A stretch of 64,000 bases of DNA from Halobacteriales archaeon SW_5_70_135 (GTDB lineage Archaea > Halobacteriota > Halobacteria > Halobacteriales > SW-7-71-33): assembly GCA_003022865.1 (NCBI GenBank), contig PXSK01000009.1, forward strand, positions 16,274-80,273. Direction: 5' to 3'. Each line of letters opens with the position of its first letter. Position 1 is the first letter of the stretch. The notes beneath the pieces were generated by a model. It was given only the letters and a program-made list of their open reading frames with translations, was not told the origin of the DNA and did not search any database. The position numbers and the translations under genes are program-made. Shown piece after piece: positions 4,246 through 23,380 of the stretch.

Positions 4246-4757
4246 GTGTACGGACAGGCGACGGACGGGTATAAGCTGTCGCCTATCATGTTCGGGAACG
4301 GACGGCCGCGAGAGCGGCATCCGTCCGCGGACTGCCCGTCGGGGCCCGTCGGCCCCGGAATTTTACGACCACGCTCGCCGGCTCGCGCCCTCGCGACCCG
4401 GGCGGAGACCGTCGGACGGACGGGTGAGAGTGGAACCGTCGCCGATCACCGGCCGTCGGCGGCTCTCCCGAGTTTCACTTTCACTCCGGTTTGGCGAGGT
4501 TCATTAGGTATCGTTCCTTCCGACTGGGTTACGCGACGCCGGGCGACGAGCCCGGCGACGCAGACGAACGAAAGCAAGGGATCCCGTCGGTGTACCACCC
4601 GTCAGACACATCCACGGCGACGCCTGCCGACGTGTCGAGGACGGTACACCTGCGCGGTGGCGACGCGGGAGCAGGAGGTAATCGCATCCATGACACACAC
4701 AAAAGTGAGAACACACGAGCCGGTCGCCGTCGGGGCGACCCGGCGGGAGGTGAGCAG

Positions 4758-7700
4758 ATGAGCACGCACGACGAGTTGGGCGCCGAGGAGGTGCACCTGC
4801 CGGCCAAGCGCACGGACGGCGACACCGTAGCGGAGCGGCTGACGGACAACGCCTACCACAACATCCTGCCGGCCCGCTACCTGAAGAAGGACAGTCAGGG
4901 TCGGCCCGTCGAGCAGCAGGAGGACCTCTTCGAGCGGGTCGCGAAGAACATCGCCCTCGCGGAGGCGGTGTACGGCGCCGACGAGCCCGTCACCGTCGAA
5001 CCGGAGCAGGTGAAACCCGACCATCCACGACGCGGCGAACTCGCCGGCGAGGCCTTCGGCGTCCACTCGGACCGCTACGACGCGCCCGAGGCGCTGCCCG
5101 AGGAGTTGGACGAGGCCCGCGACCACCTCGCGACGACGGAGACCGACCTCACGGAGGGCAACGTCTCGAAGTTCGCCTACGACGCGGTCGTCCCCGCGCT
5201 CGACGACGAGCTGCGCGAGCACGTCGAGTCGGTGTACGCGGAGTTCCGCGAGACGATGGAGAATCTGGACTTCACGCCGAACTGTCGAGGCAGTCGATCC
5301 AGGTGAGCGGGTCTACGACGACGAGGACGGGCTGGCAGAGGTGACAGAGCGGTACAGAAACGGCGAGAAGGTCGTCCTCGAACTCGAAACCGAGGCCGGA
5401 TACTCCGTGCGGGCGACGCCCGAGCACCACTTCCGGGTGATCACGGCAGACGGCGAGTACGAGTGGCGACAATTGGGGGACGTGGAGCCGGACGACGTGC
5501 TCGCCCTGCAGAAGAACTTCCTCGACGACGACGGGAGGCGTACAAGTCTTACCGGGGGCTCGTCGAGTCACGAAACCGGTCGAAAGCGGGCCGGGTTCGC
5601 TCCGCCCGAGGAGATGACGCCAGCGCTCGCGGAGTGGCTCGGGCTGTACGTCGGCGACGGCACTGCCCGGGAGTCCGGCATCCGGGTCGCGTTCGACGAC
5701 ACCGACACTGACCTCGTCGATCACTGGGTCGAGCTCACGGAGTCCGTCTTCGGGTTCGAGTCGACGACCAGGGCGCGGAACGACGCCGCCTGCGCCGTCG
5801 GGCAGGCGAGCCGCCGGGACCTGTTCGACTTCCTCGACGAGAACGACCTCCTGAAGGAGACCTCGGACACGGCGACGGTGCCGGAGGCGGTGCTCCGGTC
5901 GGGCCGTCGTCCCGCCGCACGATTCCTTCGAGGACTGTTCGAGGCCGACGGGTCGGTCAACGAGCGGTCGATAGAGCTGTACACCCACAGCGAGGCGCTG
6001 GCGTCGCAGGTGCAGAAGCTCCTCCTGGGACTCGGCGTTCGCTCGAAGGTCCGCGAGAAGCGGGACGGACACCGAGTGACGATCCGGAAGAACGTCTGTG
6101 GAAACCGGTTCGTCGAGCGCGTCGGATTCATCAGCGACCGCAAGGTCGGGGAGGCCGAGCGGTTCGAGCGGGTCGCGGACGACGCCACGTCGGTGAAGAT
6201 ACCGAACCAGACCGAGCGACTCCACGAGTGGTTCACCGAGAGCGAACTGGGACTCGACGCTTACCGGGACCTCTCGCAGTTCCTCATCGATCCCGACTCC
6301 GATCACCACCAAGAGGTCGGCAAGGGGGTCTTCCAGCGGTACGCAGAGGAGTACCCCGAGCTGCGGGAGTCGCCGGTCGCCGAGCTGGTCGACCGCGACC
6401 AGATATACGAGCGGGTTTCGTCGGTGGCCGAGATCGGGACGATGGCCGTCGAGGACATGCGCGTCCCGCGGCGAGAGACCTACGTCGTCGAGGGGTTCGT
6501 GAGCCACAACAGCCCGACGCTGATGAACGCCGGCGACGAGCTCCAGCAACTCAGCGCGTGTTTCGTCTGCTCGCCCGACGACGACATCACCGACATCCAC
6601 GAGACCGCCCGCGAGGCCGCCGAGGTGTTCCAGTGTCTCACGGCGGACACCCGCGTTCCGGTCGACGGGAGGGGGCTCGTCTCGGTCGCCGACGTCGAGC
6701 CGGGCGACGAGGTCGTCCAGCGGGACGGCGACGGTCACCGCACCCGAGTCGTCGAGGAGACCCACGCCTACCACGACGCTCCCGTCCATCGAGTCGAGAC
6801 CGGGGCCGGACTGACGCTGACCGGCACGCCGAACCACGAACTCCTGGTCGGCGGCGAGTGGACGCGGATCGACGCGATCCAGGCAGGCGACGAGCTCTCC
6901 GTCCGGCTGGGCTGGCTCTCCGAGGACGCCGACACCCCGGAGCTCACGAGCGTCTCGACGGGCGGTCGGTGGGGCGAGACCCGGACCGTGTCCGACGAGG
7001 CGATCCGCGAGCTGCACGCCCGGGGACACTCGGACTACGAGATCGCGGAGGAACTCGGCTGCTCCGCCTCGACGGCCCAGCGCCGCCGCGCGAACGAGCT
7101 CAGTCTCGACCCGAACGGCACGGGTGGCCGCTCCCGAGGGAGCGTCTCGTTCGACCCCGACGAGTTCGAGCGCCTGTACGGAGAGGGTCACAGCGACGCC
7201 GGGATCGCCGACGAGCTCGGGATCTCGCCGGCGACGGTGCAACAGCAGCGCCAGAAGCAGTCGCTGGACCCGAACGGCGAGCCGGTCACGTCGGTCACGC
7301 AGCCGGCGACGCTGACCCCCGACCTCGCCGAGCTGTTGGGAATGTGGGTCGGCGACGGGTCGACGCACGAGGACGGAATCCGGCTGCATCTCCGCCGCGA
7401 GGAGACCCTCGAACACGCCGACCACCTCTGTCGGGAGCTGTTCGACGAGGGGCTCGACTGGCGGTTCGAGGACGGCTGTTACGACGCCGTGCTCCACAGC
7501 CACGAACTCAAGCGGTTCTGGCTCACCAACTTCGGCGACGCGAAACCCGACGCTCCCTCGGCGTCGGTGCCGGAGCAGGTGTGGGCGGCCGACCGCGAGA
7601 CGGTCGCCGCCTTCCTGCGGGGGCTGTTCTCGACCGACGGCAGCCTGCAGGACGGAAAGTACCCGCGTCTCTGGAGCGCCTCGGAGACGCTGATCGGGGA

Positions 7701-10700
7701 CGTTCAGCGCCTGCTGATCGGCCTCGGTGCGCCCGCTGTCCGGTGGGAGTACGACACCGACGAGCGGGACTACTACAACGTCGGTCCCATCGGCGAGCGG
7801 GGGCTCCGGACGTTCGCGGAGCGCGTCGGGTTCGTCGACGCACGGGACGGGGAGATGACCGAGAGGGTGTCCGAGTCCGGATTCCGAGACCTCTCCTGTG
7901 GCACTCTCGTCGACGAGCGGACCTGGCGAGTTCCCGTCGAGACCGTCGAGTCTGCCGGCACCGACACCGTCTACGACGTCACAGTCGCCGACGACCACGA
8001 GTACCTCGCCGACGGCGTCGTTTCGCACAACAGCGGCGGCGGAATGGGCTACGCCTTCTGGCGATTACGACCCTACGGCGACGCCGTCGGCTCCACCGGT
8101 GGCATCGCCAGCGGACCTATAACGTTTATGAGGACTTATGATCAATTATGTGAGACGATCGCCCAGGGCGGCGCCCGGCGGGGCGCGCAGATGGCGGTCA
8201 TGCGGGTCTCGCATCCGGACGTGATACAGTTCGTCCACGCGAAGAACAAGGACGTCTCGCTGGCCCGCACGCTGCGGCTGAACGACCCCGACGACTACAC
8301 GCACACCTCCTTCGTCGACGCGCTGGACGAGGCCCGCGAGCTCATCGACGAGGGAGGGCGCGTGCCCGAACATCTGCGCAACGCCGTCGAGGGACACCTC
8401 TCGAACTTCAACATCTCGGTCGGTATCACGGACGAGTTCATGGAGGCGGTGCGCGAGGGCGAGGAGTACACGTTCACGAACCCGCGCACCGGCGATCCCC
8501 ACGAGGCCACCCAGCACACGAAGGAGCTGTACGAGCGGTTCGGTCTCGGCGAGTACGTCGAGGTCGGCGAGCCGCTCGCCCTGCCGGCCGAGGAGCTGTG
8601 GGACCGCATCGTCGACGGCGCCCACGAGAACGGCGAGCCGGGCGTGGTCTTTCTCGACCGCATCAACGAGGAGCACTCCTTCCCGGTGGAGTCGACGTCG
8701 ACGGGTGACTCCTCCGAGTACGAGGTGCTCGCGACCAATCCCTGCTGTGCGGAAGGGACGCTGGTGAACACCCCGAACGGCTACCGCCCGGTCGAGGCGG
8801 TCGAGGAGGGCGACGAGATATCGACGGTGCTCGGGAGCGAGCCCGTCGAGGAGATCGAGGTCCACGAGGACTACCCCGTCCACCGCGTGGAGTTCAGCGA
8901 CGGCGGCTCGCTCGATGTCACCGCACAACACCAGTTCCACGTGCTCGACGGCAAGGGGGTCGAGACGGTCCCGCTCCACCAGGTCGAAGCGGGCGACCAC
9001 GTGCGGCTCCATCCGTCATCGCTCAACGAGGCTGGAACCGAGGAACAGTACGAGCGCGAACTGAAGCGTGGAGTCCTGATCGGCGACGGCTGTTACACTG
9101 AGACGGCCGTCGAGTGTGACAGCGTGACGATATCGACGAGCGCAGAGGACGAGGCGTACAACCGGCGGCTGCGGGAACTGTTCGGCGAGGGGGCGTTCCG
9201 CGCGGACGACGACAGTCCGGAGGGGAAGGCGAAGAAACTCCCTCTCTCGGACGGTGGTGCGGTCGTCCAGCAGCTCGACCTCGATCCCGCTCGGTCACCG
9301 GAGAAGAGCTTCGACCCCGCTGGGCTGAGGACCGAGGCGGAGGTCGTTGGGATGCTCGACGGCCTGCTGGCGTCCGACGGCAACGTCAACCTCTACGGCG
9401 ACCACCCCCAAATCCGGTGGGACACGTCCTCCGAGGAGCTCGCGAGTGCCATCCGGAAGGCGCTGCTGAGCGTCGGGATCCACGGTCGGATCTCGACGGT
9501 GACCAGCCACAAGCGCGGCGGCTCGATCAACGGGCGGAAGGTCAGCGCGAACAACCCGAAGTACACGGTCAACGTCTCCGGTTCCTCAGCGCGTCGCTAC
9601 GCCGGGACGAGTCGGATCGGGGAGATCCATCCCCGGAAGGGCGAGCAGATGCTGGAGCTACGGACCGGCTGGATGACCACGGGCAACACCTGGAAAGCCC
9701 AGATCGAGTCCATCGAGGCGCTCGAGGAGACGACGACGGTGTACGACCTCTACTGCTCCGAGTCGGACACCTGGATCACGGAGGGGTACGTGCAGCGGGG
9801 CTGCGGCGAACAACCGCTAATGGAGTACGAGGCCTGCAACCTCGGCCACATCAACCTCTCGACGCTGGCGGCCCACGACCGCCCGGACTGGCGAGTGTTC
9901 CGCGAGGAACACGGCGGCAGCCTGGAGGAGACGGTCGGGGACTTCCTCGACGCCGCCATCGACAACGAGGAGCTCGACCGTCGCATCGAGGTCGGCACCC
10001 GCTTCCTCGACGACGTCGTCACCATGAGCGACTTCCCGGTCGACCGCATCGAGCGGACGGTCCGTGACAACCGCAAGGTCGGCCTGGGCATCATGGGGCT
10101 GGCGCAGCTGTTCATCCAGCTCGGCGTCGAGTACGGCAGCAGCGAGGCCAACGAGATCGCCCGCCAGGTCATGCAACACATCAACCGCGGGTCGAAGAAG
10201 GTCTCCCGGGACCTCGCCCGCCGGCGCGGCTCGTTCAACAACTGGGCGGACTCGAAGTGGGCCTCGCCGACAGAGCACCGCGAGTGGTTCGAGAAACACA
10301 CCGGCCTGGACGCCGACGAATGGGCCGACGGCTATCCGATCCGGAACCACAACACCACGACGATCGCCCCGACGGGATGTGTCAAGGAGAACTCGCTGGT
10401 GTCGACTGACGAGGGGCTTCGCCCGATCGAGGACTTGGACAGTACCACTGCGGAGTTCGAGCAGTGGGACGAGATCGAGATCGGCGTGTCGACCGACGGT
10501 GGCACGAAGACCGCGACCGCCGTCTACGACAACGGCTTCGCCGACGTGCGGCGTATCGAGACCGAGGGTGGGTTCAGCGTCACATCGACGCCGAATCATC
10601 GGTTCCGGACGATCAGCGAGGACGGCGAGTACGCCTGGAGGGAAGCCGACGAGTTCGAACCCGGAGACAGTATCGTCCTCCAGCGGAACACCTTCGACGG

Positions 10701-13002
10701 TGGGTCGCGTGCCACCCTCGACACGAGCGAGTGCGAGAACTACTACCACAACACCGACGAGAGCCTCGAACTGCCGGCGACGATGACCCCTGAACTCGCC
10801 GAGTTCCTCGGCTACTTCATGGGTGACGGCTATGTCCACGACGAAGTCGGCGTCAAGCTGGTCGTCGGATCGGATGCAGAGGAACTCGACACTCGGCTCC
10901 GACGTCTCGGTGAGTCACTGTTCGGCGTGGCGCCGACCGTCGAGGGCCGCGATACACGTCACGTCCTCTGTTTCGACGGTCGTCACCTCCCTCGATACTT
11001 CGAGGACAACGGCTGGAAGAGGGACGACGGAAACGCAGGCGAGGGAGCCGCCAGTGCGTTCGTCCCCGAGGAGGTACTTCGCGGCGACGAGGCGGTCGCG
11101 AAGGCGTTCCTCCGGGGTCTGTTCGAGGCCGACGGAACAGCCTCTCGGAAGGTGGAACTGTCGACCGTCTCCCCAAGGCTCGCGGACCAGGTTCAGACAC
11201 TCCTGCTGTCACTGGGCTGTGTGTTCGTCCGGGACACGCTGGAGACTGCCGGCCTGGACGACCACTACGGTGACCGCCCCCGTCACAGGGTTCGGGGGGC
11301 GAACAGGCGCGAAGACAAGCGGTTCGTCGACGAGATCGGGTTCGTTACGAAGTCGACGAAGTTCGACCTGACTCCACAGTCGTACAAGAACGACACGTAT
11401 CCGCCCGCGGTCGTCGAGGCGCTCCGCGAGGTCGACGGGTACGAGTCGGTCAGCGCGGCCGTCAAGCACCGCGTCAACCAGTCGCCGATCGACGACTCCG
11501 TCTCTCGGAAGCTCGTCAGAGACGTCGAGCGAGAGACTGGCGAGACGGTTCGTCTTGACGGGCGGCGGTTGACCGAGTTCTACGTCGCCACCGTAGCGGA
11601 CGTGACCGAGGAGATGGCGTACACGAAGGACATCAGCGTCCCCTCGAACAACACCTACGTCGCAGACGGGTTCGTCACGCACAACACCACCTCGATGGTG
11701 GGCAACACCTCCGGTGGCTGTGAGCCCATCTTCAACGTCGCCTACTACAAGAACGTCAGCGAGGACGTTCAGGGCGACGAGATGCTGGTGGAGTTCGACG
11801 ACTACTTCCTGCGGGTGCTGGAGGCGAACGACATCGACGTCCAGGCCGCGAAGCGCGAGGCCCAGGAGCTGATGGCCGAGAACGACTTCGACGGCGTCGA
11901 GTCAATGGACACCGTCCCGGACGCGATCGGCGAGCTGTTCGTCACCACGGGCGACCTGAGCGCCCACGAGCACGCCGCCGTGCAGTGTGCGCTGCAGGAG
12001 GGCGTGGACTCGGCGATCTCAAAAACTGTCAACTCTCCAAAAGAGGCCACACTAGAGGACGCGAAGGACGCCTTCGAGTACGTCCACCGCAACGGCGGCA
12101 AGGGCGTCACCTACTACCGCGACGGCACCCGCTCGAAGCAGGTGCTCACCACGCGGGCGGAGAACACCGAGTTCGCCGACGCGCTGCCCGAGGACGAGGC
12201 CGAGGCCGCCGAGGTGCTCGTCGACCAGATCGAGGAGATCTTCGGCGGCGTCGAGGCCTTCCTCGGTCGCGACGTCGTCGGCGGTCTGGTCGACATGGAG
12301 GAGCTACTCGGCGGCAGCCGTACTGTCGCCGACCGTCCGGACACGCTCACCGGCGTCAGCCAGCGCATCGAGACCGGCTACGGCAAGCTGTACGTCACGA
12401 TCAACGAGGACCCCGAGACGGGCGACCCGTTCGAGGTGTTCGCCAACATCGGCCACTCCGGCGGCTTCACCAACTCCTTCACGGAGGCGATCGGGAAGAT
12501 CACCTCCTCCGCCCTGCGGGCGGGCGTGCCGCCGGAGGAGATCGTCGACGAGCTCTGTGGCACCCGCTCGCCGAAGGTCGCCTGGGACAAGGGCGAGCAG
12601 ATCCAGTCGATCCCCGACGCCATCGGCACGGCGCTGCGGCGCTACCTCGACGGCGACGTCGACCGCGCGGTGCCCCAGCAGACCACCATCGACGAGATGA
12701 CCGACGAAGACGCCGAGACCGGAGCCGACGCCGAGACCGGAGCCGTCGCGAGCGCGAGCACGCGCTCGGACTCGGACCCAGACCCGGACCCGGACGCGGG
12801 CGCCGAGCCGGAGTCGGAGTCGGAGTCGGAGTCGGAGGACGACCCCGCCGCGCCGGAGACCGACGGTGGCGTCGCGACCGCGGACAGTCAGGCCGTCGTC
12901 GACGCCGGCGAGAACCCCGAGTGTCCCGAGTGTGGCGCGATGCGGCTCTACTACTCGGAGGGCTGCAAAACCTGCGATAGCTGTGGGTGGAGCGAATGTT
13001 AA
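4758..13002 (+). CDS. nrdJ: Adenosylcobalamin-dependent (class II) ribonucleotide reductase NrdJ, interrupted by four inteins. The reading frame is broken at 5283-5306, so it may be a pseudogene or carry an assembly indel
   Basis: The N-extein is in frame 0 (ATG 4758, MSTHDELGAEEVHLPAKRTDGD...NLDFTPN). The rest is in frame 1 (track ORF 5341..13002). Extein motifs are SPTLMNAG, SGGGMGYAFWRLRP, TNP/CGEQPL, TTIAPTG/TTSMVGNTSGGCEP and SKTVNSP, followed by an acidic tail and a C-terminal CPECG..CKTCDSCG zinc ribbon. Confidence 0.85.
5283..6510 (+). mobile_element. nrdJ intein 1 (LAGLIDADG type), inserted at FTPN|SPTLMNAG; N-terminal splicing block missing or out of frame
   Basis: A Cys codon at 5283 follows ..FTPN. 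LAGLIDADG blocks are LAEWLGLYVGDG and FLRGLFEADGSV, block B is TPEHHF, and the C-terminus is VEGFVSHN|S (cac aac at 6505-6510). Confidence 0.8.
6634..8031 (+). mobile_element. nrdJ intein 2 (LAGLIDADG type with a tandem HTH insert), inserted at EVFQ|SGGGMGY
   Basis: It starts CLTADTRVPVDG (tgt at 6634). Blocks are TPNHELLV, LAELLGMWVGDG and FLRGLFSTDGSL. It ends VYDVTVADDHEYLADGVVSHN|S (aac at 8029-8031). Confidence 0.9.
8743..9801 (+). mobile_element. nrdJ intein 3 (LAGLIDADG type), inserted in the catalytic TNP|CGEQ motif; non-canonical C-terminus ..YVQRG
   Basis: It starts CCAEGTLVNTPNG, which aligns with the CFAKGTNV-type block A. Other blocks are RGVLIGDGCYTE and MLDGLLASDGNV. It ends TTVYDLYCSESDTWITEGYVQRG|CGEQPL. 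Confidence 0.75.
10378..11685 (+). mobile_element. nrdJ intein 4 (LAGLIDADG type), inserted at TIAPTG|TTSMVG
   Basis: It starts CVKENSLVSTDEG (tgt at 10378). Blocks are TPNHRFRT, LAEFLGYFMGDG and FLRGLFEADGTA. It ends SNNTYVADGFVTHN|T (aac at 11683-11685). Confidence 0.9.
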
Positions 13003-13010
13003 TTATTTGA
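12999..13010 (+). promoter_or_regulatory. Putative TATA-like element for the downstream nuclease gene (near-leaderless transcript)
   Basis: The AT-rich ttaattatttga overlaps the nrdJ stop and is centred about 30 nt upstream of the ATG at 13037. That spacing is typical of haloarchaeal leaderless mRNAs. Confidence 0.35.
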
Positions 13011-13036
13011 CATAAGATCGGATAGCGCACTCTTCG

Positions 13037-13966
13037 ATGGTTCACGACGTGGAACGGCCGATCGACGAGTGTCCCGCCTGCGGCAGGGGCGATTTCTCGG
13101 GAGAATATGGTATCGGTATTCGCCTGATCCGGTACTGTAACGAAGCGACTGACGAGGACAGGAACCTCGGTCACGAACTGATCAGTGGAGAGAACCACCC
13201 AATGACGGGGTACAAGATGCCGGAAGAGGCAAAAGAAGCTATCGGCGAAGCCAGCCGAGGACGGGAACTCTCCAAGGAGACGAAAGAGCAAATCAGCCGG
13301 ACTCTCCAGGGACACGAGGTGTCTGCGGAGACGAGAGAGAAGATATCGGAGTCGTTGCAGGGGAGCGATAACCCCTGGTACGGAGTGACCGGTGAGGACC
13401 ACCCACTTCATGGGTGCGAGTGGAGCGAAGAGCAGCGACAACAGCTATCAGAGTCACTCTCCGGCGAAAATGCCCCGTGGTACGGTGTCACCGGTGAGGA
13501 TCATCCGTGGCACGGTGTGACCGGCGAGGACCACCCGATGTACGGCTACGAGTGGTCGGAGGAACAACTGGAACGGTTGAGCGAGGCACACAGAGGTCAG
13601 TTGAGCGCAGGGACGAAGCAGATCCACGTCGACGAAACCGGCCACGTAGTACGGAGCGGGTGGGAGGCAGAGGTGGACGCTATTCTCCACCAGAGCGGTG
13701 TCGAGTACGAGTACGAGGGTGAGACATTTGACCTCGGGGAGAGAACGTACACGCCCGATTTCATCTGTCGTTCCACCGTTGTCGTCGAGGTGAAGGGGTA
13801 TATAAACGACGGCGACGAGGAGAAGGCCAGAATGTTGATGCAGCAGAACAACGAAAGAGTATACATGGTGGTAGGGTCCGAACTCCCCGCACATCGCCAC
13901 CTCTGCTGGGAGGAACGTGAGAAGTTGCCCGAGGTGGTCGAGACTCTGGCGAGTGACTCCGGCTAA
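13037..13966 (+). CDS. Free-standing homing-endonuclease-like protein: N-terminal CxxC, five NUMOD3-like repeats, C-terminal PD-(D/E)XK nuclease motif
   Basis: 309-aa ORF in a low-GC island. The repeats are PEEAKEAIGEASRG, SKETKEQISRTLQG, SAETREKISESLQG, SEEQRQQLSESLSG and SEEQLERLSEAHRG, interleaved with NPWYGVTGEDHP(L/W/M)(H/Y)G units. The C-terminus reads SGWEAEVD...ERTYTPDF...VVVEVKGY. Confidence 0.7.
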   Translation: MVHDVERPIDECPACGRGDFSGEYGIGIRLIRYCNEATDEDRNLGHELISGENHPMTGYKMPEEAKEAIGEASRGRELSKETKEQISRTLQGHEVSAETREKISESLQGSDNPWYGVTGEDHPLHGCEWSEEQRQQLSESLSGENAPWYGVTGEDHPWHGVTGEDHPMYGYEWSEEQLERLSEAHRGQLSAGTKQIHVDETGHVVRSGWEAEVDAILHQSGVEYEYEGETFDLGERTYTPDFICRSTVVVEVKGYINDGDEEKARMLMQQNNERVYMVVGSELPAHRHLCWEEREKLPEVVETLASDSG

Positions 13967-13974
13967 CGTAGAAT

Positions 13975-14103
13975 ATGAAAGACACGGATAGCAAGACCAG
14001 CCCGCGCTGTCCAGCCTGCGGCGCCGAGACGTACCGCCGACACTGCAAGTACGTCTGTCCCGCACACGGCGTCGTGATGGACTGCGCGGACGCCTTCTGG
14101 TAG
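13975..14103 (+). CDS. Small CPxCG-type zinc-ribbon protein (42 aa)
   Basis: My own translation gives MKDTDSKTSPRCPACGAETYRRHCKYVCPAHGVVMDCADAFW*. It is below the ORF-track size cutoff. It has native GC and two Cys pairs. Confidence 0.5.
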   Translation: MKDTDSKTSPRCPACGAETYRRHCKYVCPAHGVVMDCADAFW

Positions 14104-14184
14104 CCGGACACCGGCCGCGAGCGGTCGTCTGACGTCGCCGGCCGCCACCCAAGGCTTAATCCGTCGCACGTCGCCCCTCCGACG

Positions 14185-16536
14185 ATGCACGACAGGCCAG
14201 ACGGGCGACGGGCGGGCGCATCGCTCGCGGTCGTGGGACTCGCGGCGCTTCTGGTCGTCTCGGCCGGCACGGCCACGGTCGACGCGACTGCCACGCAGGA
14301 GTCGGCGGAAGGCGAGGAGCTGACCGACGGTGGCCTCTACTTCGTCGGCCAGCAGCTGGTCACCGACCGGTACGACGCCGGGACGACGCTCACGCTCAGA
14401 CGCGGGGACGACTCGTTCGTCTCGGACCTGGTGGTCGACGACGACGGCGTGTTGCGGATCGACACCGCTCGCCTGGAGGCGGGGACCTACCGGCTGGTCC
14501 CGCCCGACGGCCCGCGGACGACGTTCGAACTCGCACGCCAGACGCTGCGCGTCTCGGCGACGCCCTCGCGGGTCTCCGGCGCCGACCGGACAGTACAGCT
14601 CACGGTCGACTCGAACCGGGACGGCTACGACCTGGTGGTCTCCGTCGACGGGCTCGACGCCCGCACGCTCGCCGACGGCAGCGACCAGTTGACGCTGCGC
14701 GACGGGCAGGCGGTGCTCGCCGACGCCGGCACAGGGGAGACGCTGACGCTCGACTTCGACGGCGTGGCCGACGGCGGCTACGAGGTGAGGGTGGCGGTAG
14801 CGGACACGACAGCGACGGCGACGACGACGGTGCGGGTCGGGGCGAGCGGCGGCACGGCGACGTTCGGGACGAGTCTCGTCACCGAGGAGGTGGGTGACGT
14901 GGCGCGTGTCCCCGTCGAGTTCGACGACGTCGACCGGGCGACACTCACCGTCGGCAGCGAGGCGCTCAACTGGCGAGTGCGGGTCGACGTCGTCGACGCC
15001 GACGGCGACGGTAGCGCCGTCGTGCTGGTGAACACCGACAACGTCCGCCAGGCGGGACGGGTGTTCTCGGCGACGGGTGCCGACCGCGTCGAGGACGTCC
15101 GGCGACTCGCTGGCGGCCGGTTCGACGACCCGAACCGGCGGATCGACCCGACGTCGTATCCGCTGCGGCTGTCGGCCGGCGGGGCGACGGACGCCGGGAG
15201 TCTGACCCTGGAGAATCCGAACAGCGTCCGGCAGTCGGTCTCGGCGACGGCGGTTCCCGGCGTGTTGCAGGCGACCGAGGTCCCCGACGCGGTCGCCGGA
15301 GTGGGCGGCGACACGACGGCGAGCGTCGCGGCCGGCGACTGGGTGGTGCTGCGCGTCCGGGCGGCCGGCGTCTTCGGCTACGTCGACGACGTCGGGGACC
15401 TGACCGGCGAGGGGAGCCAGGGCGTCACGCTGCGGCTCGTCCGGCAGTCCGGCGTCGGAGCGGGGACCGACGCGCTCGGCGACGGGGCCGGCTACGTGCT
15501 CGTCGGCCGGCCGGCGGAGAACACGCTGTTCGTGTTCACGAAGCCCGACCTGGGTGGACTGGAGGTCGGCGACCGGTACGAGGCGCGGTTCAGAGTCGAG
15601 GAGTCGAACCCGTACGTCGGCGCGACGGTGGAGCGGTCGGCGACCGTCACCGTCGAGCGACCCTCCGTTACGGTCGCGGCGACCGGCGACCACGTCGGCG
15701 TCGCGGCGACCGCGTCGGGCCTGGTCAGGGGAGAGACGAACCTGGCCGACGGCACGGAGCTCGCGGTGTCGGCGAGCGGCCCCGGCGTCGCCGCCGCCGG
15801 CGAGGCGACGGTACGGGACGGCCGCTGGAGTGTCGACCTGGACCTCTCGACCGCGGAGCCGGGCGAGCGGTTCACCGTCGAGGTGGGCCGGCCGGGCGAG
15901 ACGATCACGAGCGTCGACGCCGTCCTCACGCGTCCTCCGTCGGTCGCGGTCGCGAACCAGACGCCGAGTGGCGACCGACTGGTCACCGTCGACCGCGTGC
16001 GCCTGCCGAACGGCGGGTTCGTCGCGGTCTACGACCGCCCTCCGGGTGAGGACGGCCGGCCGGCGCCGCTCGGCACGTCGACGCTGCTGCCACAGGGAAC
16101 GAGCGGGGACGTCACCGTCACGCTCGACGAGCCGATCGACGGGGAGCGGTCGGTCGTCGTCGTGGTCCACCGGAACGGCGGCGACGGTCAGTTCGAGTTC
16201 GTCACCTCCGACGGCGCACGCGACCGACCGTACACGGCCGACGGCCGGACCGTGAGCGCCGAGGTGACGCTGTCGACGGGGGGCGAGCCCGCCACGACCG
16301 CGACGACGACCGAGACCGATACCGTCACCGACACGGATACGGACACGCCGACCACCGACGATACCGCCACCGACACGCCGACGGACACGGACACGGACAC
16401 GCCGACCACGGCCGACACGACCGGCGATGACGGCGACGGCGGACTCGTCGACGGGGTCGGCGCGCCGGGCTTCGGCCCGGCGGCGGCGCTGGTCGCACTC
16501 TTCGCCGTCGCGCTGCTGGCGCGGCGCCGCCGGTAG
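14185..16536 (+). CDS. Secreted surface (S-layer-like) glycoprotein with a Thr/Asp-rich linker and a PGF-CTERM archaeosortase signal
   Basis: It has an N-terminal signal/TM (SLAVVGLAALLVVSAGTA), a C-terminal TDTDTDTPTT linker, then GAPGFGPAAALVALFAVALLARRRR. Confidence 0.85.
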   Translation: MHDRPDGRRAGASLAVVGLAALLVVSAGTATVDATATQESAEGEELTDGGLYFVGQQLVTDRYDAGTTLTLRRGDDSFVSDLVVDDDGVLRIDTARLEAGTYRLVPPDGPRTTFELARQTLRVSATPSRVSGADRTVQLTVDSNRDGYDLVVSVDGLDARTLADGSDQLTLRDGQAVLADAGTGETLTLDFDGVADGGYEVRVAVADTTATATTTVRVGASGGTATFGTSLVTEEVGDVARVPVEFDDVDRATLTVGSEALNWRVRVDVVDADGDGSAVVLVNTDNVRQAGRVFSATGADRVEDVRRLAGGRFDDPNRRIDPTSYPLRLSAGGATDAGSLTLENPNSVRQSVSATAVPGVLQATEVPDAVAGVGGDTTASVAAGDWVVLRVRAAGVFGYVDDVGDLTGEGSQGVTLRLVRQSGVGAGTDALGDGAGYVLVGRPAENTLFVFTKPDLGGLEVGDRYEARFRVEESNPYVGATVERSATVTVERPSVTVAATGDHVGVAATASGLVRGETNLADGTELAVSASGPGVAAAGEATVRDGRWSVDLDLSTAEPGERFTVEVGRPGETITSVDAVLTRPPSVAVANQTPSGDRLVTVDRVRLPNGGFVAVYDRPPGEDGRPAPLGTSTLLPQGTSGDVTVTLDEPIDGERSVVVVVHRNGGDGQFEFVTSDGARDRPYTADGRTVSAEVTLSTGGEPATTATTTETDTVTDTDTDTPTTDDTATDTPTDTDTDTPTTADTTGDDGDGGLVDGVGAPGFGPAAALVALFAVALLARRRR

Positions 16537-16580
16537 CCGGCCTCCAAACACTTAATCGGCTGGCGATCACCTCTCGGACA

Positions 16581-17105
16581 GTGACGGAGCCGAACGAGTC
16601 CGGTCTCGACGACCCGCGGTGGCGCGAGCGGGTCGACGAGAGCGGGGGCGACGACGGTCCGACGTTCCCCTCGCCGGAGAGGAGCGGTCCCGAGGAGGGC
16701 GATCCGGACTCGGACTCGGACCCGGACCCGGACCCGGACCCGGTCGAGACCGGCGTCGCCTTGCTGTCCCGCCTGGAGCACGACGAACTGTCGGTCGCCG
16801 ACGCGCTCGACCGGATCGAGGCGATCACGTCGGCGCCGGAGCGCCAGCGGGAGATCCTCGAGACGGCCGAACGGCGGGGACTGGTCGAGCGCGACGGGGC
16901 GCGACTGCGACCGGCCGACGGCGCCGGCGCCGGCGCCGGCGGCGGCTACGTGCGCTTCGAGAGCGAGGTGGTCGTCCGTCACGGCGAGTTCACCTGTCGG
17001 CGCTGTGGCGCGGCGATCGGCGAGGGCCACTTCGTCCGTCTCGACCCGGGCGAGGTGGGGCCGTTCGGCTCCTCCTGTGTGCGGACGGTGTTGGGGCGCG
17101 ACTAG
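16581..17105 (+). CDS. Conserved hypothetical acidic protein with a C-terminal CxxC..C motif
   Basis: 174-aa ORF with a GTG start, halophile-like acidic composition, and GEFTCRRCGAAIGEGHF...GSSC near the C-terminus. Confidence 0.6.
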   Translation: MTEPNESGLDDPRWRERVDESGGDDGPTFPSPERSGPEEGDPDSDSDPDPDPDPVETGVALLSRLEHDELSVADALDRIEAITSAPERQREILETAERRGLVERDGARLRPADGAGAGAGGGYVRFESEVVVRHGEFTCRRCGAAIGEGHFVRLDPGEVGPFGSSCVRTVLGRD

Positions 17106-18181
17106 CTCTCGCGCAGCGTCTCGACGAGGCGCTCGACGGCGTCGTTGTGCCGTCGCAGGAGTTCGTTCTGCCGCTCGACGGCCGCCCGCAGCTCGGCGAG
17201 TTCTTCCTGCGGTGCCTCCTCGGATGCCGGCGCGACCGACTCCGTGAACGGCGTGTCCGTCTCCGTCTCGACGGTCTTCCCGTCGGGCGGGGAGCGCCCT
17301 TCCGACGCGTCCGCGTCTTCCGTCGTCCCGTCCGCGTCGGGCCGGACCGGTCCCGGTGCGTCGGTGTCGGTGTCGGTGTCGGTCGCGGGGGACGCGTCGT
17401 CTATGGTGTCGTCCGCGCCGCCGTCGAGGGCGGCGTCGGCGGCGTCGCGAGCGGAGGCGGCGCCCCGTTCGGAGCCGGCGTCGAGGGCGTCGACGCCGCC
17501 GAAGTCGGCGACGGCGGCCCCCGGGTCGACGGTCGACACGTCGTTCGTGTCGTCACCGAGGTCGGCGACGCTGTCGGCGTCGCGGGCGGCGAGCAGCGCG
17601 CTCTCAACGACCTCGCGCACCTCGGGGAGACGGTCGTTGGGGGTCTTCATCCGCTCCACGCGTCCGTCGACGGTGAGGACGACACCGGTAGCGACGGAGC
17701 CCTCCTCGTAGGAGAGGTCGGTGACGGCGTCGAACGGGATCGCCTCGTGGTCGTCGTCCCAGAGGGCGGCGCCGACGTGTTTGAACAGGCGCTCGTCGGT
17801 GACCACGAGCGTCAGTTCCGAAAAGGAGAAGACGCGGTGGACCCGTTCGCCGGGGGTGGTGACGTCGCCGGCCCGCAGGACGGCCGCGAGCAGAGTCTGG
17901 AGGGCGGCCTCGACGCGGTCGAGCGGGACCGCGAGTTCGCGGTCGGGGTCGACGGCGTACTCCAGGCCGAGGGTGGCCTTGCGGCGACCCTCGGAGAGGG
18001 TGAGTCGCTCGACGTCGTGGGAGAGGCTCTCGACGGACTCGTCGCTGAGCACGCCGCCGGCACGGTAGACGAGCGAACGCTCCGGGGTAACGAACAGGCG
18101 GTCGTCGCCGCCGAGCGAGACGGCCGTGGCGATCGTCTCGCCCTCGCCCAACTCGTCCGCGACGGTGCCGGGCAGTTCCAT
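17102..18181 (-). CDS. Conserved hypothetical protein (globular N-terminal domain, acidic TDTDTD linker, C-terminal coiled-coil-like tail)
   Basis: 359-aa ORF with coding-like composition; it is convergent with and overlaps the previous gene by 4 nt. I recognise no family. Confidence 0.6.
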   Translation of the reverse strand: MELPGTVADELGEGETIATAVSLGGDDRLFVTPERSLVYRAGGVLSDESVESLSHDVERLTLSEGRRKATLGLEYAVDPDRELAVPLDRVEAALQTLLAAVLRAGDVTTPGERVHRVFSFSELTLVVTDERLFKHVGAALWDDDHEAIPFDAVTDLSYEEGSVATGVVLTVDGRVERMKTPNDRLPEVREVVESALLAARDADSVADLGDDTNDVSTVDPGAAVADFGGVDALDAGSERGAASARDAADAALDGGADDTIDDASPATDTDTDTDAPGPVRPDADGTTEDADASEGRSPPDGKTVETETDTPFTESVAPASEEAPQEELAELRAAVERQNELLRRHNDAVERLVETLRES

Positions 18182-18307
18182 GTCGCGGCGTACGGGGGCC
18201 GTGACCTAAAACCGCCGGCCCCGCCGACCGAGCCGACTCCGCCGGAACGGCCCACGGGTGGTCGGGATGAGAAGGTTAAAGACTGGACCGCGATAGGTTC
18301 GTGACGC

Positions 18308-18437
18308 GCCCGGGTGGCTTAGCTGGACATAGCGCCGCACTCATAGGGTTCACGAGGCGGCACGCATGCCCGAGAGGCCGGCCGAGCCTCCGACCTGGGA
18401 CATGCGGAGATCGCGGGTTCGAAGCCCGCCCCGGGCA
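18308..18437 (+). tRNA. tRNA-Met (anticodon CAU, elongator type) with a 56-nt intron at 37/38 (18346-18401)
   Basis: Hand-folded: acceptor GCCCGGG/CCCGGGC, anticodon stem CCGCA/UGCGG, loop CUCAUA[intron]A, T arm GCGGG-UUCGAAG-CCCGC, discriminator A. The mature length is 74 nt. A tRNA-Ile2 (CAU) identity cannot be excluded. Confidence 0.85.
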
Positions 18438-18571
18438 TACTTCAATTTGTTGTCATCTATGCAGGACCGCAGGGCGGCGGCGCCGCCGCGACGTGCGGGA
18501 CACCGCGGGAGAAGTCGACACGTCGACGGCGCGAGGAGTGTCGTCGGGAGACGACGGCTGGACGCGGCGGG

Positions 18572-19675
18572 TTACTCCGTAGCGGACTCGACGCCGGTGA
18601 TCTCGAACCTGGCGCCGCCGCTGCTCCCGTCGGTAAGACGGATCTCCCAGTCGTGTGCCTCGACGACCTGTTCGACGACGCTCAGTCCGAAGCCGGTCCC
18701 CTCGGGACCGGGGGAGTAGCCGGCCTCGAACACGGCCGTGCGTTCGTCGGCGGGGATACCCGGCCCGTCGTCTTCGATGTAGAAGCCACCGTCGGTCTCT
18801 CCGACGGTGACCGAGACGTCCGTCCCGCCGCAGTTCACGGCGTTCGAGAGGAGGTTCTCGACCAGCTGACGGAGGCGGTCGCGGTCGGCGTCGACCTGCT
18901 GTGTCGTGTCGACGTGCAGCGTGGCGTCGTTCGGCTCCAGGTTCGTCCAGCAGAACTGGGTGAGTCGTGCCAGATCGACAGTCTCGCGGTCGAGCGCCCT
19001 GGTCCCGACCAGTGCGAACGTCAGCAGGTCGTCGATCAGGCGCTCCATCCGCTCGTGTGCGGCCGCGATCTCTCGCAGGGACTCGCTGTCCCGTTCCTTG
19101 CGAACGAGTTCGAGGTGCCCCCGGGCGACGGCCAGAGGATTTCGGAGGTCGTGGCTGACGACCGACGCGAACTGGTCGAGCCGCTCCACCTGCTGTTCCA
19201 GCTCCTGTTCGCGCTCGATGCGATCGAGCGCGGTCCTCGCGTGACTGACGAGCAGCTCCGCCAGCTCGACGTCGTCCTCGTCGAACGCGGCTTCGGTCGT
19301 ACTGACCGCCTGAAAGACGCCGTGCTCACCGATAGGAACGCTGAACCCCGACCGGTAGCTCGGCTTGGCGGGGTCGGTCCCGTCGTCCGGCTCGACGCGG
19401 TCGACGATCCGGGACTGTCCGGACTGGTAGGATTCGCCCGCCAATCCCTGCGTGAGTCGCATCCGACGGCTGCCGTCCGGCGGCGCGTCGTCCGAGGTGG
19501 CGTACGGGACGAGCCACTCGCCTTCCCGAATCACGATCGTACAGAGGCTGAACTCCAACACTCTCGCTGCCGCGTCGACGGTCAATGCACAGACGTCCTC
19601 GACGGAGTCCTGGGACTGAAGCTCGGTCGCAATGCCGTGAAGAGCCTCGATCGTGTTCCCGGACGACTCCACCAT
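18572..19675 (-). CDS. Sensor histidine kinase (GAF - HisKA - HATPase_c)
   Basis: It has the H-box FASVVSHDLRNPL, the N box LRQLVENLLSNAV, and G boxes DDGPGIP and GTGFGLSVV. The N-terminal region is GAF-like. Confidence 0.88.
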   Translation of the reverse strand: MVESSGNTIEALHGIATELQSQDSVEDVCALTVDAAARVLEFSLCTIVIREGEWLVPYATSDDAPPDGSRRMRLTQGLAGESYQSGQSRIVDRVEPDDGTDPAKPSYRSGFSVPIGEHGVFQAVSTTEAAFDEDDVELAELLVSHARTALDRIEREQELEQQVERLDQFASVVSHDLRNPLAVARGHLELVRKERDSESLREIAAAHERMERLIDDLLTFALVGTRALDRETVDLARLTQFCWTNLEPNDATLHVDTTQQVDADRDRLRQLVENLLSNAVNCGGTDVSVTVGETDGGFYIEDDGPGIPADERTAVFEAGYSPGPEGTGFGLSVVEQVVEAHDWEIRLTDGSSGGARFEITGVESATE

Positions 19676-19834
19676 ACCGAACCAGAGACAGGAGCGACAA
19701 AACCACTTTCGCCGAATCCGCCCCGCCCGCTCGGCACGGCCGCCGAGAACGCCTCGGCGCCCGTCGGGGGACGACTGCCGGACACCGACGCCGTCCCCGG
19801 CGTGACCACGGTCGCCGGTCGATCGAGGGGTGAG

Positions 19835-20335
19835 CTACCGTGTCGGGCGTTCGAAAGTGGTCGTGGTCGTGTCCCCGTGGGCGCGTTCCACCACGACGAC
19901 CGTGTCGGGCAGCTCGTCGCTCATCGTGACCCGAACCCGGTACGTGTCCCAGCTCAGGTTGCTAGTACATCCCCTCCCCAGCCAGACGCTGTCCCGGAAG
20001 CCCTCCCGCTGGGGGCCGGTCCCGACGACGACGTGGAGGGTGTCCGTCCGGGCGTAGTACGTCGCCCGCTCGAGGACGGCACGGTCACAGCTACTCGACC
20101 CGACCGGCATGCGACCGATCACCTCGACGCTGTGCTCGCTGTCGGTGACCTCGACCGCTGGCGGTCGACGTTCGGCCCCGGAGGGTCCGTCGTAGCGTTC
20201 GAGGCCGTCGACCGCCGGCGGGTCGAGTTCGAACTCGCGACCGGCGATCGGGGACGGGTCGGGGACCGTCTGCCGGAAGCCGACGACGCCGAGCCCACCG
20301 ACCCCCAGCGCGTAGAGGAACCGACGCCGGTTCAT
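19835..20335 (-). CDS. Tat-secreted hypothetical protein
   Basis: MNRRRFLYALGVGGLGVVG is a twin-arginine signal. The ORF is 166 aa. Confidence 0.6.
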   Translation of the reverse strand: MNRRRFLYALGVGGLGVVGFRQTVPDPSPIAGREFELDPPAVDGLERYDGPSGAERRPPAVEVTDSEHSVEVIGRMPVGSSSCDRAVLERATYYARTDTLHVVVGTGPQREGFRDSVWLGRGCTSNLSWDTYRVRVTMSDELPDTVVVVERAHGDTTTTTFERPTR

Positions 20336-20717
20336 CGTGACAGCCGGAGTACTGGTATGATAAATTCGCTACGACCACGGGGACGGATCGGCCGCCGGTC
20401 GTCGTCCGGTCACCTGCTGGCGGGGCAGCCTGGTCCGGCACGCGACACTGGAGGTCGTCACGGTCCCGGCGTCGCCGAGTGAGGCGAGCGGACTCCGGGG
20501 ACGACGGCGAGTCGACACCGCCGGCGAGAGTACGGGGCTGTGGCGTCGAGGTTCGGCCGCGGTCCCAGACACGCGCCGTAGTCGCGGGGCGTACTCGACG
20601 GTTCGTGTACGGACACGTCGGCGTCGGGCCGGGAGCTCGCTCGACTCACTCCCGCTTCTCGCCCCGCGAGTCGCCGCTGTCGTCATCCACAAGCCCGAGC
20701 GCCGAGTACCGTCGCCG

Positions 20718-21992: not shown

Positions 21993-22084
21993 CCGGACGC
22001 CGGACCGCCCTCGACCGGTGACGGCAGCGGTCACGACGACGGTTACCCGAAGGCTCTTAGGGCGCAGTGACCTATATCGGTCCA

Positions 22085-23299
22085 ATGACGGACACGATGG
22101 ACAACGTCGATCTCCCGTACAGCGACGGGGAGGCGTCGAAGCAGGAGAAGATCGCCGCACTGCGGGAGCGTCTGGAGGTCCTGGAGAACCAGAACGAGGA
22201 GATGCGAGACAAGCTGCTGGACGCGAACGCCGAGAACAACAAATACCAGCAGAAGCTAGAGCGGCTCACCCACGAGAACAAGAAACTGAAGCAGTCGCCG
22301 CTGTTCGTCGCGACGGTCCAGGAGATCACCGAGAAGGGCATCATCATCAAGCAACACGGCAACAACCAGGAGGCGCTCACGGAGGTCACCGAGGAACACC
22401 GCGAGGCGCTGGAGCCCGACGCCCGCGTCGCAGTGAACAACTCCCTCTCGGTGGTAAAGCGATTGGACGACGACACGGACGTGCGGGCCCGCGTGATGCA
22501 GGTCGAGCAGTCGCCCGAGGTGAGCTACGGCGACATCGGCGGCCTCGAAGAGCAGATGAAGGAGGTGCGCGAGACGGTGGAGATGCCGCTGAAGAAGCCC
22601 GAGATGTTCGGCGAAGTCGGCATCGACCCGCCGTCGGGCGTGCTGCTGTACGGGCCGCCGGGCACCGGGAAGACGATGCTGGCGAAGGCCGTCGCCAACC
22701 ACACCGACACCACCTTCATCAGGATGGCCGGCTCCGAGCTCGTCCACAAGTTCATCGGCGAGGGGGCGAAGCTCGTCCGCGACCTCTTCCAAGTGGCCCG
22801 CGACCACGAGCCCTCCGTGCTGTTCATCGACGAGATCGACGCTATCGCCGCGAAACGCACCGAGTCCAAGACCAGCGGCGACGCCGAGGTCCAGCGCACC
22901 ATGATGCAACTACTCTCGGAGATGGACGGCTTCGAGGACCGCGGCGAGGTCCGCATCATCGCCGCCACCAACCGCTTCGACATGCTCGACCACGCCATTC
23001 TCCGGCCCGGCCGCTTCGACCGCCTCATCGAGGTGCCCGAGCCCGACGAGGAGGGCCGGGAGACCATCTTCGAGATCCACACCCGCGAGATGAACATCGC
23101 GGGGGACGTGGAGTTCGCCGCACTCGCCGCGGAGACCGACGCCGCCTCCGGCGCCGACATCAAGGCCGTCTGCACCGAGGCCGGCATGTTCGCCATCCGC
23201 GACGACCGTACCGAAATCGGCATGGAGGACTTCCGCAACGCCTGGGAGAAGGTCCAGGCCGAGAGCGACGAGTCCGAGGTTTCGAAGACGTTCGCGTAG
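22085..23299 (+). CDS. pan: Proteasome-activating nucleotidase (AAA+ ATPase)
   Basis: It has an N-terminal coiled coil, Walker A GPPGTGKT, Walker B LFIDEID, and the second region of homology. The ATG at 22085 (MTDTMDNV) lies inside track ORF 22067..23299. Confidence 0.92.
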
Positions 23300-23380
23300 C
23301 GCGAGCCGACGCCGCTCTCGCTATCGCTCTCACACTCACTCTTACCCTTACTCTTACTCCTGCTCTCGTTCCTGCCGCCG

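Follow-up and report, generated by a model that had tools for sequence, protein, structure and literature searches.

A fragmented NrdA was reportedly described in Aeromonas phage Aeh1 by Friedrich and colleagues in 2007, and illegitimate repair of double-strand breaks during intron or intein homing is said to have been observed in phage T4 by Parker and colleagues in 1999. In a later study, the fragmented large subunit of the Aeh1 ribonucleotide reductase (RNR) is documented as functional (Crona et al., 2011; PMC3045599). The RNR genes of haloarchaea carry Class 1 LAGLIDADG inteins, described as rir1 alleles (Soucy et al., 2014; PMC4071816), and metagenome scaffolds produced by IDBA-UD are known to contain local assembly errors (Chen, Anantharaman, Shaiber, Eren and Banfield, 2020, Genome Res; PMC7111523).

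The gene considered here is an nrdJ of an uncultured salt-crust archaeon, contained in a 64,000-nt stretch of a scaffold from the metagenome-assembled genome (MAG) SW_5_70_135 (the window), which is interrupted at the start of its first intein, where a 47-base stretch is missing. Its first intein shares with the rir1 inteins the host gene, insertion in conserved RNR motifs, canonical blocks B, F, and G, endonuclease motifs, and a C-terminus of HN/S; unlike them, intein 1 of the window lacks block A and its Cys1 is out of frame with the remainder, and its insertion site, F-x-P-N/S-P-T-L-M-N-A-G, was not matched to any of the lettered alleles (PMC4071816). Judged from sequence comparisons, the frame break is most likely a gap left in the deposited scaffold by a local assembly error of IDBA_UD, the nrdJ of the organism itself probably being intact at this point.

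Organization of the interrupted nrdJ gene

Pfam and NCBIfam assigned both pieces of nrdJ to one adenosylcobalamin-dependent ribonucleotide reductase, with Ribonuc_red_lgN on the first piece and Ribonuc_red_lgC, TSCPD, and four stretches each of Intein_splicing and LAGLIDADG_3 on the second according to Pfam (Table 1). In a homology search, the N-extein open reading frame was 100% identical to NCBI protein BRD13_01545 (P0007) from MAG Halobacteriales archaeon SW_5_70_135. By direct reading and translation, the frame of 4758 runs through ...ENLDFTPN (N at 5280–5282) and C into RGSRSR and a stop, and the frame of 5281 reads T-VEAVDPGERVYDDEDGLAEV... and stays open through 13002; the downstream open reading frame is 2,553 aa long. 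Since homology to the N-extein stops at 5282 and homology to the intein begins at 5284/5287 in the other frame, the break is not a chance pattern, and the placement of the break exactly at the N-terminal splice junction of intein 1 in the initial annotation is borne out. In the deposited scaffold the reading frame is thus disrupted. A minus-strand open reading frame of 918 codons (5272–8028) was treated as a by-product of the 70% G+C content, the homology lying on the plus strand.

Table 1. Features of the nrdJ locus, in window coordinates.
Feature	Position	Strand	Basis
nrdJ N-extein, Met1 to Asn175	4758..5282	+	translation; Pfam Ribonuc_red_lgN; NCBIfam NrdJ models
End of N-extein, intein-1 insertion site F-T-P-N / S-P-T-L-M-N-A-G	5282	+	
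Cys1 codon (tgt) of intein 1, 47-nt gap directly after	5283..5285	+	alignment with L001
Intein 1 without block A, from residue 17 of the intact allele, +1 frame	5284..6510	+	translation, Pfam, comparison with L001
Out-of-frame intein DNA (RGSRSR) and stop tga at 5304–5306, closing the N-extein frame	5286..5306	+	
GTG, earliest possible start in the downstream frame, 35 nt past the stop	5341..5343	+	ORF list
Extein segment 2 (SPTLMNAGDELQQLSACF...EVFQ)	6511..6633	+	
Intein 2 (CLTADTRV...VVSHN/S), HTH motifs and LAGLIDADG	6634..8031	+	
Extein segment 3, ending ...LATNP	8032..8742	+	
Intein 3, starting CCAEGTLV, ending ...SDTWITEGYVQRG	8743..9801	+	
Extein segment 4 (CGEQPL...IAPTG)	9802..10377	+	
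Intein 4 (CVKENSLV...GFVTHN/T), LAGLIDADG type	10378..11685	+	
Extein segment 5: TSCPD domain, acidic tail, C-terminal Cys-rich motif, stop codon	11686..13002	+	

Most of intein 1 is preserved, including blocks B (ATPEH), F, and G, the C-terminus ...TYVVEGFVSHN/SPTLMNAG with its terminal His-Asn and Ser at +1, and a LAGLIDADG endonuclease with PF14528 matches and two motifs, LAEWLGLYVGDGT and FLRGLFEADGS; the protein encoded by this retained part is 100% identical to that of an intact allele, L001. Block A, comprising the first beta-strands (C-V-P-P-D-S-L-V... in this allele family), is absent, with residues 2–16 gone and the Pfam Intein_splicing match beginning at profile position 38 of 155. 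The Cys codon of the window lies in the N-extein frame and the rest of the intein in the +1 frame, whereas in L001 Cys1 is in frame with both.

Intact alleles and the size of the gap

A contig from an independent metagenome (ERZ27230166 k119_43846) matches the window at 99.86–99.98% over ∼40 kb, specifically at 99.86% over 5285–23984 and at 99.977%, gap-free, over 21776–43080, and in it nrdJ is open for 2,764 codons with the 47 nt present in frame. L001, the only independent assembly of this strain, and L018 are 99.86–99.98% identical to the window and have 47 extra in-frame nt that encode the conserved block A; another assembly of the same population therefore has a different and biologically coherent sequence at the site of the gap. 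The extra bases (L001 837–883) read GTGCCGCCGGACTCGCTGGTGGCCGCCGGCGGGGGTCTAAAGCCGAT, amount to exactly codons 2–16 of intein 1 plus 2 nt, and encode intein residues 2–16/17 (VPPDSLVAAGGGLKP-I). The window reads CCGAACTGTCGAGGCAGTC across the junction, and the intact sequence reads CCGAACTGTGTGCCGCC and AAGCCGATCGAGGCAG there; because one T is ambiguous, the junction falls at either 5284/5285 or 5285/5286. The initial annotation had estimated a deletion of about 40–55 nt that removed block A and shifted the frame, had placed the block B His about 48 residues after Cys1, and had taken VEAVDPGERV for the segment following block A. These points agree with the alignment to orthologous intein alleles that it had proposed for sizing the deletion: the loss is 47 nt relative to the near-identical intact allele, the distance from Cys1 to this His is 49 residues in the window and 64 in the intact allele, and the latter reads CVPPDSLVAAGGGLKPIEAVDPGERV.

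Block A is kept in all ∼20 orthologous alleles, which read CVPP[DNES]S... in frame except for one contig with a 1-nt indel. Five further orthologous alleles, all of them intact, came from a second scan of JGI metagenomes with an intein alignment; a scan of the JGI metagenomes with the exact-junction flank (the shared right flank) gave no matches, and the best intein identity in a scan of GTDB genomes, a set that does not include the species, was 71%. Outside the gap, four substitutions in 7.7 kb separate the nrdJ of the window from the intact allele, and the frame stays open; extra stops, frameshifts, and elevated substitutions were looked for in this remaining 7.7 kb and none were found. A recombination breakpoint at the junction was suspected from BLAST identities of 97.2% upstream vs. 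99.86% downstream and was rejected, as all of the mismatches fall near the start of the gene, in its first ∼70 aligned nt (∼4782–4850 of the window), and the ∼430 nt before the gap are identical to the ERZ27230166 contig. Slippage and a hairpin were also rejected as origins of the gap, given that there are no flanking direct repeats, that the sole inverted repeat (CCGCCGG/CCGGCGG) falls within the missing bases, and that the folding energy resembles that of shuffled sequences (z = −0.19).

The same alleles bear on whether the break might be tolerated, the gene working in pieces or by recoding, which is highly improbable. In pieces, once the crippled intein had been cleaved at its C-terminus, the N-extein domain and a product initiated at the GTG of Table 1 would associate non-covalently, as in the NrdA of Aeh1; by recoding, ribosomes would shift frame by +1 or −2 at AAC-TGT-C and so restore the fused precursor. 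The Aeh1 enzyme provides a precedent (PMC3045599), with an RNR large-subunit gene split into two open reading frames at a position linked to a mobile element; the GTG is close to the stop, and C-terminal cleavage has no chemical need for Cys1 (PMC4031507). However, the Aeh1 split arose from an inserted endonuclease gene, is stable, and equips both halves with sequences that mediate assembly, whereas in the window 47 nt are missing and the downstream piece starts inside a damaged intein. No split arrangement occurs in any of the ∼20 alleles, not even in the near-identical strain, and neither interaction domains nor a conserved start signal was found, the GTG being the only translation signal for the second piece. 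A fused product would lack block A, and a re-initiated one, opening at intein residue 36, would be without the 35 residues preceding it. Because the HINT fold takes its first strands from this part of the intein, neither product would be likely to fold, splice, or cleave.

Recurrence of gaps in the source study and the origin of the break

The scaffolds of the source study were built with IDBA_UD from 100-bp HiSeq reads, with no mention of any step to correct scaffold errors (PMC5532433); the window is thus part of a scaffold uncurated for local errors, with a coverage of ∼135×, and the SW_5 reads belong to BioProject PRJNA351262. Four of the five nrdJ scaffolds from this study contain N-free, frame-shifting gaps of ∼44–68 nt that remove conserved residues at different places. 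Besides the 47-nt gap at the intein-1 start of the window, these are a 65-nt gap in QH_10_67_13 (L017, PXQL01000112.1) with the same left edge, AACT(G), as the window, a second gap of 68 nt inside an extein of the same gene, which also has two runs of N, a gap of ∼47–50 nt in the N-extein of QS_9_68_17 (L013, PXSA01000034.1), and one of 44 nt in the endonuclease domain of SW_7_65_23 (L014, PXSQ01000079.1). Comparable gaps were found in none of 16 nrdJ loci from other sources, including the isolates Halapricum hydrolyticum and Halobellus ordinarius (Fisher p = 5/5985, ∼8e-4). The scaffold is not generally poor, since the 47-nt gap is the only one of its kind across the 40 kb of the window comparable with the ERZ27230166 contig. 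The start of intein 1 is a fragile region in other data as well: contigs from other assemblies often stop within its first ∼70 nt (P0035, P0019, and P0013), and one contig from the 454 era is in error by 1 nt at this place.

A local assembly error is favored by the uncurated IDBA_UD source, the intact twin contig, the lack of decay, the recurrence within the study and absence elsewhere, the conserved block A, and the fragility of the region. With many related Halobacteriales in the community, two conserved stretches, the extein end (...CCGAACTG) and the start of a mobile intein, may have tangled or broken the de Bruijn graph, and IDBA_UD would have joined the two pieces without N's at the cost of a few tens of bases. 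In the organism, ribosomes would read on through Cys1 and block A, and removal of all four inteins from the precursor by splicing would leave a 1,084-residue class II ribonucleotide reductase. The window resembles the errors described by Chen et al. in being an uncurated IDBA_UD scaffold, in having a wrong stretch (47 nt) shorter than a read and without N's, and in sharing its defect with scaffolds from the same pipeline; those errors are defined by a consensus that no read supports, the comparison here covering scaffold sequences, and deletions specifically at intein junctions are not described there (PMC7111523). Some features count against this explanation. The ERZ27230166 contig belongs to another data set, and its k119 naming suggests reads >100 bp, so the SW_5 population could differ from it; a biological process specific to the site could also underlie the left edge common to two MAGs; and each of the five gaps causes a +1 frame shift, a coincidence that has a chance of ∼1 in 16 and is not predicted by misassembly.

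The initial annotation regarded nrdJ as a pseudogene unless the assembly was in error, and the second of these is now the better supported, given the uncurated scaffold, the gaps in four of five study scaffolds vs. none of 16 others, and the absence of further lesions in 7.7 kb. A real, very recent 47-bp genomic deletion that destroyed the N-terminal splice junction and made this nrdJ copy a null allele is unlikely. Translation would then end after the N-extein, no spliceable precursor would be made, and the copy would be either a newly formed pseudogene whose role another RNR fills or one defective copy among intact ones in a polyploid haloarchaeon, originating possibly in aborted intein homing or in illegitimate end-joining anchored at the insertion site. 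The deposited sequence does carry the gap, without N's, and a loss of 47 nt is atypical of base-calling error. Some haloarchaea also have class I RNR genes, and these could compensate; however, a second ribonucleotide reductase was looked for in the 64-kb window and none was found, nrdJ has no second lesion in its 7.7 kb, and an intact allele is present in the same strain-level population.

An origin in homing draws on the edges of the gaps. Those of the window and QH_10_67_13 share a left edge inside the Cys1 codon of the same intein and have right edges at different positions in that intein, the pattern that would be expected from joining a fixed double-strand-break end to a partly copied intein. 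As in end-joining, microhomology is limited to 1 nt and flanking repeats are absent. Illegitimate homing repair of the kind reported for T4 would leave just such a junction, with little microhomology and with one side constant at the homing site and the other variable. In contrast to that system, the window presents no evidence of a break, and its left side retains the G of TGT, a base of the intein Cys codon, which points to derivation from an intein-containing allele rather than from a cut intein-less one. Similar nrdJ gaps also lie away from intein junctions and homing sites in sister scaffolds of the source study, and nowhere else; if real, they would mean that several species have majority null alleles of a normally essential gene in which all other residues are conserved. 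That the 47-nt and 65-nt gaps are both real, as homing or end-joining scars in null nrdJ alleles persisting in polyploid haloarchaeal populations, is unlikely.

Database records and the unusual end of intein 3

Most probably the organism has a normal nrdJ with four inteins, and as biology the finding is ordinary and matters little. The public record of MAG SW_5_70_135 and of at least three sister MAGs nevertheless contains a broken essential gene, and the truncated “hypothetical proteins” BRD13_01545 and BRC62_08080 are already in protein databases. In mixed haloarchaeal communities, errors of this kind seem to concentrate in highly conserved genes rich in inteins, so that calls of pseudogenes or “degenerate inteins” from uncurated MAGs need read-level checks. 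Were the gap real, it would be a rare case in nature of a host gene killed by damage to its intein, and possibly a trace of homing that failed.

Intein 3 is inserted at N-P/C-G-E-Q, where the catalytic Cys is the +1 residue, and it ends in Gly rather than Asn. It falls in a large family of RNR inteins with the same ending, in whose block F an Asp is part of an xDTW motif. A PDB sequence search with it gave weak matches only (best E = 0.13), and a literature search on Gly-terminal inteins found nothing relevant. The missing terminal Asn was considered as a sign of an already dead gene and rejected, because the terminal Gly is conserved in >100 representatives of the family.

The nrdJ gene and its inteins

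A single gene for an adenosylcobalamin-dependent (class II) ribonucleotide reductase, nrdJ, was identified on the forward strand of the window at 4758-13002 by Pfam and NCBIfam annotation, and it carries four inteins. The first open reading frame contains Ribonuc_red_lgN, and the second contains Ribonuc_red_lgC, TSCPD, and four stretches each of Intein_splicing and LAGLIDADG_3; the predicted NrdJ after splicing comprises 1,084 residues. The frame breaks at the N-terminal junction of intein 1 exactly as described in the initial annotation, with FTPN-C followed by RGSRSR and a tga stop. No second ribonucleotide reductase was found within the 64-kb window.

Coordinates of nrdJ features in the window (a slash marks the splice junction)
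Feature	Position	Strand	Detail	Basis
N-extein	Met 4758 to Asn 5280-5282	+	...ENLDFTPN	translation
Cys1 codon	5283-5285	+	tgt, then six out-of-frame codons (RGSRSR)	translation
Stop closing the N-extein frame	5304-5306	+	tga	translation
Remainder of nrdJ	up to 13002	+	open in the frame of 5281	translation
Intein 1, C-terminal end	6510	+	VSHN/S	splice-junction reading
Intein 2	6634-8031	+		boundary reading
Intein 3	8743-9801	+		boundary reading
Intein 4	10378-11685	+		boundary reading

In intein 2, the LAGLIDADG domain is preceded by two helix-turn-helix-like repeats, SDYEIAEELGCSASTAQRRR and SDAGIADELGISPATVQQQR, with matches to Pfam HTH_23, HTH_38, and Sigma70_r4_2. The downstream neighbor of nrdJ (13037-13966, forward strand) encodes a 309-aa protein with precomputed matches to Phage_endo_I (Pfam PF05367) and, weakly, NUMOD3; it may be a free-standing endonuclease beside the intein-laden gene, and identical copies of it occur in ENA assembly ERZ27230166 and a Logan contig of SRR6651932. 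An open frame of 918 codons on the opposite strand (5272-8028), overlapping inteins 1 and 2, was without homology support and was taken as a by-product of the ~70% G+C content.

Size and content of the gap

With what remains of intein 1 as the homology query, six proteins carrying both N-extein and intein were recovered (62-70% identity); each has F-[MV]-P-N/C-V-P-P-[DNS]-S-[LM]-V-A-... preceding the segment aligned to VEAVDPGERV of the window, which bears out the earlier placement of VEAVDPGERV after block A, the N-terminal intein motif. Block A was also intact and in frame at the scanned loci (14 from GTDB species genomes and five orthologous loci from JGI metagenomes, with two isolates among them, Halapricum hydrolyticum and Halobellus ordinarius), apart from one contig with a 1-nt indel. 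A functional split or recoded nrdJ is very improbable: a fragmented ribonucleotide reductase is known in phage Aeh1 (PMC3045599), but any product here would be missing block A or else intein residues 1-35, and the arrangement is absent from all relatives compared. At two loci, 1-nt frameshifts were seen, at ~551 within block A of intein 1, a G/C-rich stretch (GCCGG-GGTGG), in the 454-era JGI contig GSLNARP_contig17669 (L025) and at ~9351 between consecutive extein residues in A07HR60 (L008); both look like homopolymer-type sequencing errors.

The missing segment was sized against contig k119_43846 (65.8 kb) of ERZ27230166, located by neighbor-gene look-up, which is 99.86% identical to window positions 5285-23984, 99.977% identical without gaps to 21776-43080, and a perfect match across ~430 nt upstream of the break. 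Its nrdJ is uninterrupted (2,764 codons), and the sole difference at the break is 47 more bases, GTGCCGCCGGACTCGCTGGTGGCCGCCGGCGGGGGTCTAAAGCCGAT, encoding N/CVPPDSLVAAGGGLKPIEAVDPGERV, so that the window lacks intein 1 codons 2-16 and a further 2 nt; microhomology at the gap is a single T. This supports the block A deletion with frameshift that the initial annotation had put at ~40-55 nt. The other 7.7 kb of nrdJ differ from the intact allele by four substitutions, all in intein 2 (7850, 7851, 7870, and 7887). Over the ~40 kb compared, the only other indels are in-frame length differences of 6 nt (16717-16722) and 12 nt (16919-16930) in G+C-rich repeats, at ~12.3-12.5 kb of the ENA contig. Upstream of nrdJ, the two contigs diverge completely (window ~4436-4850 versus ENA contig 1-400), and the first ~30 codons of the gene differ by 14 mismatches (MSAETPDTEADEVVLPVKRTEGETMEE... 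versus MSTHDELGAEEVHLPAKRTDGDTVAE...), being identical thereafter; this divergence marks either a boundary of recombination between strains or a chimeric end of the ENA contig or window scaffold, at the 5' end of nrdJ.

Gaps in sister scaffolds and their probable origin

NCBI protein BRD13_01545 of MAG SW_5_70_135 matches the N-extein reading frame, RGSRSR tail included, at 100% identity; this MAG is part of the Atacama salt-crust study (Finstad et al., 2017), whose scaffolds were built with IDBA_UD. A second MAG from that study, QH_10_67_13 (L017), encodes a 181-aa frame (BRC62_08080) ending FMPN-WRARL-stop, in which the DNA reads ...ATGCCGAACTG directly joined to GCGAGCGCGTCTATGAC, fusing the N-extein to G-ERVYDD; this 65-nt gap has its left edge inside the Cys1 codon, as in the window. 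The same nrdJ contains two N runs with frame changes and a further N-free gap of 68 nt within an extein, between LNDP and RVPEH.

A systematic tblastn search of every locus with the intact N-extein plus intein 1 revealed N-free, frame-shifting gaps removing tens of conserved bases in four of five Atacama-study scaffolds, namely the window (47 nt), QH_10_67_13 (65 nt), QS_9_68_17 (L013; ~47-50 nt, with loss of DQLKPDHPRRDELAxE), and SW_7_65_23 (L014; 44 nt, with loss of RSxxxEKRDGYRVTI), the fifth (L003) being clean, versus none of 16 loci from other sources, which carry at most the 1-nt frameshifts of L025 and L008 (Fisher, 5/5985, ~8e-4, a strong association with the data set). The gap sites are 5285 in the window, 10528-10530 and 14652-14654 in L017, ~5838-5856 in L013, and ~6831-6836 in L014.

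Given the intact twin allele and the confinement of these gaps to one study's scaffolds, the pseudogene reading of the initial annotation is not favored, and the assembly error it had allowed for is probably the better explanation of the frame break. Majority null nrdJ alleles in four species, with all other residues conserved and no stops, are not credible, whereas a pipeline-specific defect is. A real 47-nt genomic deletion is unlikely. In its favor, the scaffold is N-free, the gap is the lone one of its kind in the 40 kb comparable with the ENA contig, and aborted homing or end-joining is expected to leave a constant left edge and differing right edges. Against it, the G of TGT is retained, which points to an intein-containing allele as the source of the left side, like gaps in sister scaffolds lie far from any homing site, and neither a flanking repeat nor a significant hairpin is there to account for replication slippage. 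Chen et al. (PMC7111523) reported 13 local assembly errors in one 1.13-Mb genome.

The cause of such an assembly error may be the conservation, among co-occurring Halobacteriales, of the N-extein end (TTC-ATG/ACG-CCG-AAC-TG) and the start of the mobile intein 1. A de Bruijn graph would be expected to branch at the last position of the Cys codon, where intein 1 alleles (TGT or TGC) first diverge. Contigs of other assemblies tend to stop in the first ~70 nt of intein 1, as seen from homologous proteins ending at the junction (P0035), at residue 14 (P0019), and at residue 24 (P0013). IDBA path assembly trims bases if the paired-end distance estimate is negative.

All five N-free Atacama nrdJ gaps (47, 65, 68, 44, and ~47-50 nt, each 2 mod 3) shift the frame by +1, with a chance of ~1 in 16; this common shift is explained by neither assembly error nor real deletion.

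A Gly-terminal intein family

The insertion site of intein 3 is the catalytic motif N-P/C-G-E-Q, whose catalytic cysteine is the +1 residue, and the intein ends in ...SDTWITEGYVQRG/C, with Arg-Gly at the usual His-Asn position of inteins. A HMMER scan of 1.84 billion representatives recovered 425 relatives, of which 123 reached E <= 1e-10. Because Gly is terminal in 107 of the 124 relatives with a readable C-terminal junction (RG in 81, QG in 18; Asp in 10 and Asn in seven others), the Gly terminus is not a defect particular to this genome. The terminal residue covaries with the block F position seven residues past a conserved YD, which is Asp in 101 of the 107 Gly-terminal members (xDTW), Leu or Phe in Asp-terminal members (TLTW), and His, Ser, Thr, or Glu in Asn-terminal members. 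Plausibly, and by inference, the block F Asp has taken over from the terminal residue as the group breaking the C-terminal splice bond. In a 2014 review of splicing mechanism, the C-terminal residues given are limited to Asn, Gln, Asp, and Glu, and a 2020 review names terminal Asn alone; our literature search, an incomplete one that included both reviews, found no description of Gly-terminal inteins. The family, which merits separate follow-up, includes both large (LAGLIDADG) and mini forms, and its hosts include Halobacteriales, Anaerolineae, and DPANN archaea.
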